IMG/VR virus record: IMGVR_UViG_2703718859_000013
DNA from: a virus
Lineage: Duplodnaviria > Heunggongvirae > Uroviricota > Caudoviricetes
Length of the DNA: 8,544 bases
Reading direction: 5' to 3' (one strand)
Within the stretch, counting starts at the first letter, position 1. Each line of letters opens with the position of its first letter. Of this stretch, positions 2,806 through 3,076 are shown piece after piece. Made by a program: the position numbers and the translations under genes. The notes beneath the pieces were generated by a model. The model saw only the letters and a program-made list of their open reading frames with translations. It was not told where the DNA came from and ran no database searches.

Positions 2806-2835
2806 TTGACGACAACACTTATCCGGGATTATATT
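2806..2835 (+). promoter_or_regulatory. Candidate sigma70 promoter (TTGACG-N18-TATATT) reading rightward
   Basis: -35-like TTGACG at 2806..2811 and -10-like TATATT at 2830..2835 with 18-nt spacing; by-eye consensus match only. Confidence 0.35.
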
Positions 2836-2893
2836 CTTCGCACGGTCGAGTTGGCCGTCGGGATTGGAACCCCGGATAGAGACCGCGACAAAC

Positions 2894-2918
2894 ACACGCC
2901 GCGAGCGTGTTTTTTATT
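2894..2918 (+). terminator. Rho-independent terminator-like hairpin (nin-region tR-type terminator or 3' end of a short RNA)
   Basis: Stem ACACGC (2894..2899) / GCGTGT (2905..2910), 5-nt loop, followed by TTTTTATT (2911..2918). Confidence 0.55.
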
Positions 2919-3076
2919 GTCGTATGCACGCGCACATCTGAATTATGGTGGGGCGCATGGGGGAGCTGAAAAGCTCGCCGGTCGGTTTCCCGGTAGTTCC
3001 AACCCTGTGCGTCTCACCACCCGATGATTGGAACCTTACGGTGGTGATAGTTTAGAAACCACTAGAGGGCGTCATT

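Follow-up and report, generated by a model that had tools for sequence, protein, structure and literature searches.

Positions 2806 to 3076 of the window (the whole stretch of 8,544 nucleotides of Caudoviricetes DNA that was analysed) lie directly upstream of an antirepressor gene, ant (3077–3742, plus strand). The ant product shows ORF6N (4.6e-20) and P22_AR_C (2.7e-07) matches in Pfam and is 65% identical over 144 amino acids to AnrP (STM2616) of Gifsy-1. The region had been described from its letters as a GC-rich island, and the GC content indeed peaks at 0.555 in 2801–3000, compared with 0.41–0.45 upstream (2601–2900) and 0.42–0.44 downstream (3001–3300). Analysis of the antirepressor leader revealed two curated Rfam families above threshold, isrK (2842–2915) and C4 antisense RNA (2941–3024); the Rfam scan of the window found no isrJ. 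The tRNA-like GGGATTGGAACCCC was considered as a tRNA fragment and rejected, as ARAGORN found neither a tRNA nor a tmRNA. The leader is unannotated in PQ600364, a phage record with an identical leader, and in all 20 RefSeq E. coli rows inspected (of 669 carrying genomes), and in some phage records the leader RNA is annotated as a protein-coding gene.

A predicted sigma-70 promoter lies at 2806–2835 on the plus strand, with the -35 element TTGACG at 2806–2811, an 18-nucleotide spacer and the -10 element TATATT at 2830–2835. The site, already picked out in the sequence-only reading, matches the consensus at 10 of 12 positions in our scan, and the -10 residues T, A, A and T (2830, 2831, 2833 and 2835) are invariant in 13 homologues. 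The promoter aligns with the PisrK region of Gifsy-1, TTGACACAAACAGTTATCCGGGGCTATATT; in that prophage, transcription is lost when PisrK is deleted (PMC4825925). Transcription would start near 2842. Homology of Stx2a phages to the cassette starts at 2805. Two palindromes further upstream (2747–2766 and 2776–2794) were considered as cassette operators and set aside; they were assigned to the neighbouring toxin-antitoxin pair because they lie outside the conserved module and over the divergent minus-strand promoter.

The promoter is followed by a predicted short RNA of the IsrK family (2842–2916, plus strand; Rfam isrK RF01394), a candidate decoy carrying two elements named a1 and b1. Its first hairpin (2842–2858) is shorter than in the isrK model. 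Element a1 (UUGGAAC, 2864–2870) lies in the loop of a CGGG/CCCG hairpin (2859–2874), and b1 (GAGACCG) occupies 2879–2885. The RNA ends in an intrinsic terminator, for which the hairpin and T-run proposed earlier were both located, the hairpin ACACGC/GCGTGT at 2894–2910 and the U-run at 2910–2915. The suggestion of a terminated transcript of about 75 nucleotides agrees with this prediction, which places an IsrK-family RNA between the promoter and the terminator (2894–2915). The isrK match is marginal (54.9 bits, gathering score 50), the match to c4-a1b1 (RF03163, 23.5 bits at 2829–2878) is below threshold, and on its own the short RNA folds no better than shuffled versions do (z = -0.07). A promoter of its own and a Rho-independent terminator directly upstream of the C4/orf45 domain and the antirepressor are common to Gifsy-1 and 12 other loci. 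Taken singly, the promoter, the terminator and the repeats are not above chance, as the scan gave two promoter-like sites (1.5 expected), one terminator (1.2 expected) and, allowing one mismatch, two matches of the 10-mer (0.65 expected; equalled in 26 of 200 shuffles). Their significance is drawn from homology and covariation.

A spacer (2917–2944, plus strand) that is near-identical in PA2, GER2, VT2-Sakai and Gifsy-1 connects the terminator to the C4 domain. The C4-type antisense RNA (2941–3024, plus strand), the main regulatory RNA of the region, was overlooked in the sequence-only reading. It matches Rfam C4 (RF01695) over the full length of the model (1–87 of 87) with 71.0 bits against a gathering score of 45. 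The RNA consists of a 17-bp outer stem, hairpin I (2963–2976) and hairpin II (2977–2994), with the element b' (CGGUUUC, 2983–2989) in the loop of hairpin II and the element a' (GUUCCAA, 2996–3002) in the single-stranded junction; the 3' stem (3003–3019) is followed by an ACC tail. Its minimum free energy is -44.9 kcal/mol (z = -4.23), and the minimum free energy structure is the family consensus. Compensatory changes were found in 17 of the 27 pairs among 47 sequences; the pattern by which the genome-scan sequences were chosen fixes hairpin II and, in places, the outer stem, so that invariance in those columns arises by construction. By homology to P1, the mature form probably spans about 2947–3021. 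The ends resemble those of mature P1 C4 (AU/GGUGGGG ... CACC-ACC), which is the one basis for predicting RNase P excision here; excision and repression of ant in trans are putative, by analogy with P1. C4 RNA and ant are probably co-transcribed, since no terminator lies between 2916 and 3077. When the leader is folded in its entirety (2842–3085, z = -2.42), 2917–2924 is predicted to pair with 3076–3083 and so to cover the ant start codon; this long-range helix is a prediction only.

The repeats noted earlier take on a different meaning next to the C4 RNA. The direct repeat GATTGGAACC is exact at 2862–2871 and 3026–3035, as claimed. Of the proposed inverted copy with adjoining CCGG, the inverted copy is present (GTTCCAACCC at 2996–3005), whereas CCGG (2990–2993) forms the 3' side of another hairpin. 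The inverted repeats said to bracket a segment of about 145 bp are not transposon ends; they represent the antisense element a' with its targets a1 and a2. The TTGGAAC repeats thus appear to be functional, as a1/a2 target sites covarying with the inverted copy a'. The second set of elements, b1 (GAGACCG), b' (CGGUUUC) and b2 (GAAACC), had been missed.

Analysis of the downstream leader identified the a2 target (UUGGAAC, 3028–3034, plus strand), complementary to a', and the b2 target (GAAACC, 3055–3060, plus strand), complementary to the b' loop. The segment GGUGGUGA (3040–3047, plus strand) is complementary to UCACCACC at 3014–3021, and the predicted GGUGGUGA/UCACCACC hairpin displays a2 in its loop; most homologues carry CGGTGGTG at the same place. 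The end of b2 lies 4 nucleotides upstream of the Shine-Dalgarno sequence GAGGG (3065–3069), inside the usual 30S footprint. Here b2 leaves the Shine-Dalgarno sequence uncovered, whereas in P1 and most relatives it covers it, reaching into the GGAGG in most relatives. Element a' is complementary to a1 and a2 over 7 nucleotides each, and b' to b1 over 7 nucleotides (one G:U) and to b2 over 6 nucleotides. The corresponding duplex energies are -8.5 (a1) and -8.8 (b1) compared with -8.5 (a2) and -7.3 kcal/mol (b2), and the b':b2 pairing of 6 bp is the weakest among the 13 homologues. Cofolding by RNAcofold, whether of C4 and the leader or of IsrK and C4, produced neither pairs between the two molecules nor any gain in energy; this model is nested-only and cannot represent kissing contacts, hence the outcome counts neither way and duplex energies of the short elements were used.

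Comparative analysis revealed concerted change of the antisense elements with all four of their target sites, both in 13 phage homologues and in 89 distinct variants from genomes. MAFFT lost the register of the variable-length b elements, and formal pair counting was therefore limited to a1:a' and a':a2, the b elements being assessed by searches of own against foreign duplexes and complements. Among the 13 homologues, pairing reaches 94.5% in the a1:a' columns and 100% in the a':a2 columns; the covariation scores are 0.557 (a1:a') and 0.521 (a':a2), compared with 0.151 and 0.135, respectively, in shuffles (0 of 500 in each case). Taken together, a' and b' find their best partner in the downstream leader of the same phage in 13 of 13 phage homologues, and for b' binding no foreign leader beats the own leader in any of the 13. 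For 89 distinct genomic a'/b' combinations, the longest exact complement has a median of 7–8 nucleotides to the own targets and 4 nucleotides to foreign targets. The a and b sequences thus appear to constitute a specificity code that differs among related phages. The PA2-type cassette, for example, has the same b but an a element (UUCGAAC) with one base changed from the UUGGAAC found here.

These results bear on the role of the short RNA. In a purely P1-like arrangement, C4 would repress ant and the short transcript would be a by-product of attenuation, with a1/b1 serving precursor folding or processing and not acting as a decoy in trans. The marginal isrK score, the unexceptional folding of the short RNA alone and the annotation of a1/b1 in P1 only as 'putative' targets are in line with this view. 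Against it, a1/b1 are as complementary to a'/b' as a2/b2 are, they covary with a'/b', and in Gifsy-1 IsrK supplied in trans lifts anrP translation more than 100-fold, point mutants being inactive (PMC4825925). We regard the P1-like arrangement as unlikely and prefer a short RNA that acts as a decoy. Hfq binding and trans activation of the antirepressor by the IsrK-type RNA remain putative here, by analogy.

Two open reading frames overlap the leader, and a small protein could in principle be the functional entity. The 73-aa TTG-start frame (2806–3027), previously judged spurious, has no Pfam match and is interrupted by stop codons in four close homologues (GER2, VT2-Sakai, Gifsy-1 and phi296), which agrees with that judgement. 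A 36-codon frame (2945–3055, plus strand) begins at a conserved AUG at the 5' end of C4 and is the positional equivalent of Gifsy-1 orf45, A107 of Gifsy-1 mapping to the same AUG; its stop codon TAG (3053–3055) overlaps b2. The existence of both frames, the overlapping coding sequences annotated in VT2-Sakai and phi296 and the finding that full anrP expression in Gifsy-1 needs orf45 translation (PMC4825925) speak for a protein. However, the counterparts of the 36-codon frame in homologues range from 14 to 45 aa or continue in frame into ant, which makes a functional peptide unlikely, and substitutions within the frame track the RNA base-pair covariation. A review citing the Gifsy-1 study describes the orf45 nucleotide sequence as conserved and its amino acid sequence as variable (PMC12197685). 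A functional small protein is accordingly considered highly improbable. The 36-codon frame stops 21 nucleotides before the ant ATG (3077), compared with a distance of -4 in Gifsy-1; the stop/start overlap is absent here, and the translational coupling step of Gifsy-1 may therefore not carry over unchanged.

Analysis of E. coli genomes revealed the module in 669 of 5426, at a median copy number of 1 and never in more than 4 copies, and at least 80% of the query was covered in 663 of the 669 carrying genomes. In every phage locus examined the module adjoins, on its upstream side, a gene most often annotated as antirepressor. The cassette moves as a unit between positions in phage genomes; here it occupies the nin region, downstream of a toxin-antitoxin pair, and in Stx2a phages it lies beside int/xis. 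This mobility, together with the short inverted and direct repeats, could be taken to indicate a MITE-like or other mobile-element remnant between inverted repeats, or operator sites for a protein, both of which had been offered as readings. The genome search for dispersed copies speaks against a MITE-like remnant, since carrying genomes have a median of one copy and nearly always the whole module, and the repeats are only 7–10 nucleotides long and internal to the unit, not at its ends. An operator role is unsupported in that the repeats covary as Watson-Crick partners of an RNA, unlike operator sites. This pair of explanations is considered extremely improbable, and the regulatory-leader reading is favoured by the isrK and C4 matches and by homology to Gifsy-1.

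Judged by sequence comparison, the locus at 2806–3076 is an unannotated homologue of the isrK-orf45(STnc1160)-anrP locus of Gifsy-1 from Salmonella (Hershko-Shalev et al. 2016, PMC4825925). The leaders are 77.5% identical, and isrK, c4-a1b1 and C4 all match the 273-nt antQ-anrP gap of Gifsy-1 in Rfam. Both loci share the promoter, IsrK and its terminator, the C4-type domain, the a2/b2 sites, an ORF6N-type antirepressor and the conserved AUG. The published Gifsy-1 compensatory pairs G28:C162 and G31:C159 lie inside a1:a' by our mapping. The two loci differ in specificity (Gifsy-1 has UUGGCGU as a and AUCACCG as b), in the open reading frame (orf45, with 45 aa, overlaps the anrP start, whereas the frame here has 36 aa and ends upstream of ant) and in position, the Gifsy-1 locus lying downstream of Q. 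A Salmonella locus from the genome scan (L123) was considered as Gifsy-1 and ruled out by its different downstream gene set.

The immI region of phages P1 and P7, with the c4 antisense RNA, icd and ant1/ant2, was reportedly described by Citron and Schuster in 1990 (cited via PMC12197685). Comparison with P1 (NC_005856) revealed the same order, a1-b1-(hairpin and U-run)-c4-a2-b2-gene, and the same RNA fold; in both, hairpin II bears b' in its loop and the junction bears a'. Elements a and b are spaced 15 nucleotides apart upstream and 27 nucleotides apart downstream here, compared with 14 and 29 in P1. The P1 promoter carries an operator for C1 (Oc4), whereas the present cassette shows no recognisable repressor operator. 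The b2 site of P1 overlaps the ribosome-binding site of a distinct leader gene, icd, which is coupled to ant1; here icd is absent and b2 falls short of the Shine-Dalgarno sequence. The immI region of P22 (ant, arc, mnt and sar RNA) is a secondary immunity region in which the antirepressor is partly controlled by a small antisense RNA. However, sar is a true cis-antisense transcript, control is exerted mainly by the Arc and Mnt proteins, and the locus here has no homologous RNA.

Satellite phage P4 has a CI RNA with seqA, seqB and seqC, as recounted by the Gifsy-1 authors (PMC4825925). By description it is similar, a processed leader RNA that pairs with complementary sites upstream and downstream of itself, but its output is transcription termination of replication genes and not antirepressor control. 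In APSE phages of Hamiltonella (LR794150; bioRxiv 10.1101/2020.03.17.996009), isrK and C4 precede a BRO-N, antirepressor-like gene in this order; the a' and b' regions are annotated, the specificities differ, and the arrangement is known from sequence alone. A literature search for a link of C4/IsrK to antirepressors of Shiga-toxin phages found nothing beyond this APSE comparative paper.

Overall, our analysis suggests that 2806–3076 is very probably an immI-type RNA switch that silences ant (3077–3742) in the lysogen and permits its release. The switch would consist of an IsrK-type short decoy RNA followed by a C4-type antisense RNA, which together gate antirepressor translation. For this phage, we infer from sequence and homology where transcription starts, how efficiently it terminates, whether RNase P processes the RNA and what the regulatory effect is. 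Transcription would be initiated by the sigma-70 promoter near 2842, and most transcripts would end at the terminator (2894–2915), as shown in Gifsy-1. The terminated IsrK-type RNA of about 75 nucleotides would present a1 in a hairpin loop and b1 single-stranded, and read-through would continue into the very stable C4 domain (2947–3021) and then into ant. RNase P may excise C4 RNA from the read-through transcript, as in P1. The a' and b' elements of C4 would pair in cis or in trans with a2 (3028–3034) and b2 (3055–3060), just upstream of the ant ribosome-binding site, and block ant translation; in P1, antisense pairing also leads to premature termination. Elements a1 and b1 would be target mimics of a2 and b2. 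In cis, the a1:a' helix, demonstrated by compensatory mutations in Gifsy-1 (PMC4825925), would lock the read-through RNA in an inactive fold; in trans, the IsrK-type RNA would compete for a'/b' and turn ant translation on. Ant would then inactivate a prophage repressor and promote induction.

This account merges two models by analogy and goes beyond any single system; the P1 model treats C4 as a repressor, and the Gifsy-1 study focuses on IsrK as an activator. The mechanism is already established in P1 and Gifsy-1, and what is added here is of annotation value; the main contribution of the finding is the annotation of an overlooked leader RNA. Induction drives toxin production in Shiga-toxin phages. 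Antirepressors can trigger prophage induction, and one antirepressor can target the repressors of other resident prophages (PMC3121763). An RNA switch with a short swappable code upstream of Stx1/Stx2 phage antirepressors could therefore plausibly control cross-induction in multi-prophage strains.

A second, paralogous cassette was observed at 3751–3996 on the plus strand, with the same logic and built on an RNA of the sRNA-Xcc1 family. It has a promoter TTGACA-N18-TATATT (3751–3780) and a short RNA with a1 (CUGAACAC, 3794–3801), b1 (UCGAAAG, 3806–3812) and a U-run (3841–3846). The sRNA-Xcc1-family RNA (3866–3955; Rfam RF02221, 67.5 bits, gathering score 53) contains b' (CUUUCGA, 3921–3927) and a' (GUGUUCA, 3930–3936); a2 follows at 3954–3961 and b2 at 3979–3985, the latter extending into the AGGA of the ribosome-binding site. 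All of these features are on the plus strand, as is the downstream gene (3997–4629), which matches Bro-N/P22_AR_C in Pfam. Rfam places sRNA-Xcc1 (RF02221) outside the C4 clan, and the literature searched treats it solely as a trans-acting sRNA associated with virulence in Xanthomonas and Xylella; when a link between this sRNA and C4 was sought, the APSE comparative paper was again the sole result. A role of this family in antirepressor cassettes may be new. It is possible, with the balance tipping slightly against it, that the two form orthogonal tandem RNA-gated antirepressor cassettes, that sRNA-Xcc1 represents a second C4-like class of prophage immunity RNA and that the a/b elements are a combinatorial code. 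If so, sRNA-Xcc1 would have its own terminated decoy (a1/b1) and its own a2/b2 at antirepressor/antiterminator ribosome-binding sites, and the a/b elements, which undergo independent reassortment among Stx phages, would determine between which co-resident prophages antirepressors can be silenced or released. Comparison of WGPS6, P13374/2851 and GER2 revealed four distinct specificities of the second cassette, which covary at all sites.

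Analysis of the window against Rfam at the curated gathering thresholds revealed four matches. Two of these, isrK (2842-2915; 54.9 bits against a gathering score of 50) and the C4 antisense RNA (2941-3024; 71 bits against 45), lie in the leader of the plus-strand antirepressor gene ant (3077-3742; ORF6N/P22_AR_C). Folded alone, the C4 segment gave exactly the family consensus, with a 17-bp outer stem, two internal hairpins and a single-stranded junction, at a minimum free energy of -44.9 kcal/mol (z = -4.23), and none of 200 shuffles was as stable. The C4 domain carries two putative antisense elements, b' (CGGUUUC, 2983-2989) in the loop of hairpin II and a' (GUUCCAA, 2996-3002) in the junction. 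Matching targets occur upstream as a1 (UUGGAAC, 2864-2870, within a hairpin loop) and b1 (GAGACCG, 2879-2885), followed by a terminator (2894-2915), and downstream as a2 (UUGGAAC, 3028-3034) and b2 (GAAACC, 3055-3060), ahead of the Shine-Dalgarno sequence GAGGG (3065-3069) and the ant ATG at 3077. In the arrangement proposed, the C4 RNA would silence ant through a2/b2, and a short IsrK-type RNA would act as its decoy through a1/b1.

A sequence-only reading of this region had listed a promoter-like TTGACG-N18-TATATT site, a hairpin with a T-run, repeats and a GC-rich island, and each was recovered: the promoter-like site at 2806-2835, the GC-rich hairpin at 2894-2910 with the T-run after it, GATTGGAACC as an exact direct repeat at 2862-2871 and 3026-3035 with an inverted copy at 2996-3005, and a local GC content of up to 0.555. 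The repeats and their inverted copy stand as observed and are identified here as the a1/a2 targets and the a' antisense element; the b set had been overlooked. Promoter-like and terminator-like sites occur in the window about as often as expected by chance, and the 10-mer repeat was equalled in 26 of 200 shuffles. Singly, the listed features are thus not beyond chance; it is homology and covariation that make them real. A 73-aa ORF that the same reading had considered spurious is ruled out as a gene, its frame being broken in four close homologues.

Duplex energies for the short RNA with a' and b' were -8.5 (a1) and -8.8 (b1) kcal/mol, and those for the targets were -8.5 (a2) and -7.3 (b2) kcal/mol, so the predicted pairing of the short RNA with a'/b' is no weaker than that of the target sites. 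The b':b2 duplex comprises just 6 bp and ends 4 nt before the Shine-Dalgarno sequence; in most relatives b2 extends into it. Between a2 and b2, the conserved GGUGGUGA (3040-3047) pairs with the C4 3' tail (3014-3021), displaying a2 in a loop. In the predicted fold of the whole leader the C4 domain stays intact. The same fold contains a long-range helix between the conserved spacer 2917-2924 (UUGUCGUA) and 3076-3083 (UAUGACAA), spanning the ant start codon, which would hide the AUG without need of a2/b2. The promoter spacer TATCCGGGATT (2820-2830) is complementary (11 nt, 91%) to AACCCCGGATA (2868-2878) on the 3' side of the a1 hairpin; this spacer precedes the inferred transcription start, and a similar sequence is present in Gifsy-1.

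Covariation was assessed with 12 further phage homologues (PA2, GER2, VT2-Sakai, phi296, phiP27, three Stx phages, ASU11, a Klebsiella phage, a Citrobacter phage and APSE-3). In all 12, C4 comes after isrK. The homologues differ in a' and b', and a1, a2, b1 and b2 change in step; in PA2, one C-to-G change in a' relative to the window is matched by G-to-C in both a1 and a2. For the a1:a' helix, pairing was 94.5% and covariation 0.557; shuffles gave 0.151 (0/500 as good) and slid controls at most 0.154. For a':a2, pairing was 100% and covariation 0.521, against 0.135 in shuffles (0/500). In a cross matrix of antisense elements and leaders, the own downstream leader gave the most stable combined a'+b' duplex in 13 of 13 rows. 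At least 120 matches came from a pattern scan that took one genome for each species, and those listed are mainly from Enterobacterales, with a few other Proteobacteria. Among the 89 distinct a'/b' combinations in the matches listed, the longest exact complement had a median of 7-8 nt in the own flanks and 4 nt in foreign flanks. RNAalifold on 47 sequences found compensatory changes at 17 of 27 pairs; because hairpin II and some of the outer stem were set by the scan pattern, only unconstrained columns are informative. The window's a element is also that of phiP27, and its b element recurs in VT2-Sakai and PA2. Such independent reassortment of a and b among phages is in keeping with a heteroimmunity code of the kind that separates P1 from P7.

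The window shares the plan of P1 immI, whose order in the P1 record is the operator Oc4 with two promoters, a1 (TTGACAG) and b1 (GTTAGTGC), a hairpin with a U-run, c4 (77 nt), a2 and b2, and then icd and ant1. The likeness includes the placement of b' in the second hairpin's loop and of a' in the junction 3' of that hairpin. The spacings of a to b are 15 nt (upstream) and 27 nt (downstream) in the window, compared with 14 and 29 nt in P1. Unlike P1, where b2 lies on the icd ribosome-binding site, this locus is without an icd-like leader gene, and no recognisable repressor operator is found inside the cassette.

An experimentally studied direct homologue is the isrK locus of Gifsy-1 (NC_010392). 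There, a gap of 273 nt separates the Q-like antQ (STM2617) from the antirepressor anrP (STM2616), and within it isrK scores 79.3 bits, c4-a1b1 48.1 bits and C4 69 bits. This gap and the window leader share 77.5% identity, and the two antirepressors 65% over 144 residues. In Gifsy-1, PisrK transcribes both short IsrK and a read-through isrK-orf45-anrP mRNA that is silent in translation, anrP translation is more than 100-fold higher with IsrK in trans, and the inhibitory helix is defined by the compensatory pairs G28:C162 and G31:C159 (Hershko-Shalev et al., PMC4825925). With position 1 set at the start of the isrK match, G28 and G31 lie within a1 (U26-U32) and C159 and C162 within a' (A158-A164), and A107 marks the conserved AUG at the C4 domain's 5' end. 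What was published as 'helix b-I' therefore corresponds to the a1:a' pairing, and 'orf45/STnc1160' to the C4 domain. The Gifsy-1 authors themselves likened IsrK to P4 seqA and STnc1160 to P4 CI RNA (PMC4825925), and the Rfam family c4-a1b1, a C4 clan member, overlaps isrK in three phage loci and in Gifsy-1. Whereas Gifsy-1 orf45 overlaps the anrP start, its equivalent in the window (2945-3055, 36 aa) stops 21 nt upstream of the ant ATG without overlap; its length is not conserved, ranging in homologues from 14 to 45 aa, or it is fused in frame to ant.

Of 5426 complete E. coli genomes, 669 contain the leader; the median among these is one copy, and none has more than four. In 663 of the 669 the match covers at least 80% of the query. 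Copy number and coverage rule out the MITE-like remnant that had been suggested for this segment. The 421 bp around the region are 100% identical to Escherichia phage phiSTEC1589-Stx1c (PQ600364), where the region sits between the replication genes and ninB...Q...stx1, and leader 2842-3076 is 100% identical to the E. coli 06-00048 chromosome. Homology to PA2/F765-type Stx2a phages (93.6%) begins precisely with the -35 hexamer (2805) and breaks off some 40 nt inside ant (about 3117), and in those phages the cassette lies beside int/xis, not in the nin region. These limits and the differing genome position indicate that the promoter-RNA-start unit moves as a module with a junction inside the antirepressor gene; by sequence comparison, the cassette is mosaic-mobile as a unit. 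C4-type RNAs do not always have an antirepressor as their first downstream ORF (loci L016-L135): among 86 modules of the matches listed this ORF was Ner-like HTH_35 in 17, Rha in eight, Bro-N in four, ORF6N in three and AntA in one. Many other first ORFs are short and without family, and these are possibly icd-like leader genes.

The second antirepressor gene (3997-4629; Bro-N/P22_AR_C) is preceded by a second, tandem cassette (3751-3996) with the same a1/b1 - RNA - a2/b2 logic, the RNA being of the sRNA-Xcc1 family (RF02221; 3866-3955, above the curated threshold; fold z = -2.65). Three other specificities of this cassette were found in WGPS6, in P13374/2851 and in GER2 (1338-1421 of the fetched locus), and in each the four target sites follow the changes in a'/b'. 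From these four specificities only, sRNA-Xcc1 may be a C4-like prophage immunity RNA, a point that may be new. Searchable papers treat it as a virulence-associated sRNA of Xanthomonas and Xylella, and a paper on APSE notes only its position upstream of an ORF6N gene; sRNA-Xcc1 is not in Rfam's C4 clan, and the papers searched gave no link to C4. One table places an sRNA-Xcc1 copy, isrK and C4 on one strand within ~400 nt in a distant host, an association of the two RNA classes that the window also shows. Over 3745-4010, the second cassette is 94.7% identical to Stx2a_F451 and 90% identical to phiSTEC1589-Stx1c, against 100% for the first cassette, which argues that the window derives from a mosaic relative rather than from phiSTEC1589-Stx1c itself.

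This kind of switch is well known from P1/P7 c4, the Gifsy-1 isrK locus, RF01394, RF01695, RF03163 and the APSE annotation. No paper was found describing an isrK/C4 switch in Shiga-toxin phages; a study of the Phi24B antirepressor leaves antisense RNA unmentioned, and Tree et al. 2014 mention neither isrK nor any antirepressor. No feature is annotated beneath the leader match in any of the 20 RefSeq E. coli matches listed. The window's switch is an unannotated, newly found instance. In public records, CDSs overlap the structured RNAs (L138 588-734, L003 652-825, L005 674-841 and L007 527-1186 of the fetched loci) and are probably mis-annotations. The 'antB2 antirepressor' of P13374 (O104:H4 outbreak; L138) covers the sRNA-Xcc1 match at 623-706, and orf34 of VT2-Sakai (L003) and a hypothetical protein of phi296 cover C4.

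Divergent to the first cassette are two minus-strand genes, one for a TumE-type toxin (PF20126; 2441-2728) and the other for an HVO_A0114/HTH protein (2080-2448). Two palindromes overlap the minus-strand promoter TTGACA-17-TATCCT (2783-2755): TGTTGTTAaggaTAACAACA at 2747-2766 and GTTGTCAATTAATACAACA at 2776-2794. They are probably autoregulatory operators of this toxin-antitoxin pair. GER2 has a HigB-type toxin gene in the equivalent place upstream of its isrK-C4 cassette (L006 1-537), and the next gene there has no annotation beyond 'hypothetical'. The remaining Rfam match, STnc100 (RF02076; 8394-8544; 98.3 bits, truncated at the window end), lies downstream of ORFs 7075-8031 and 8042-8311, whose counterparts in a related phage record are Shiga toxin 1 subunits A and B.
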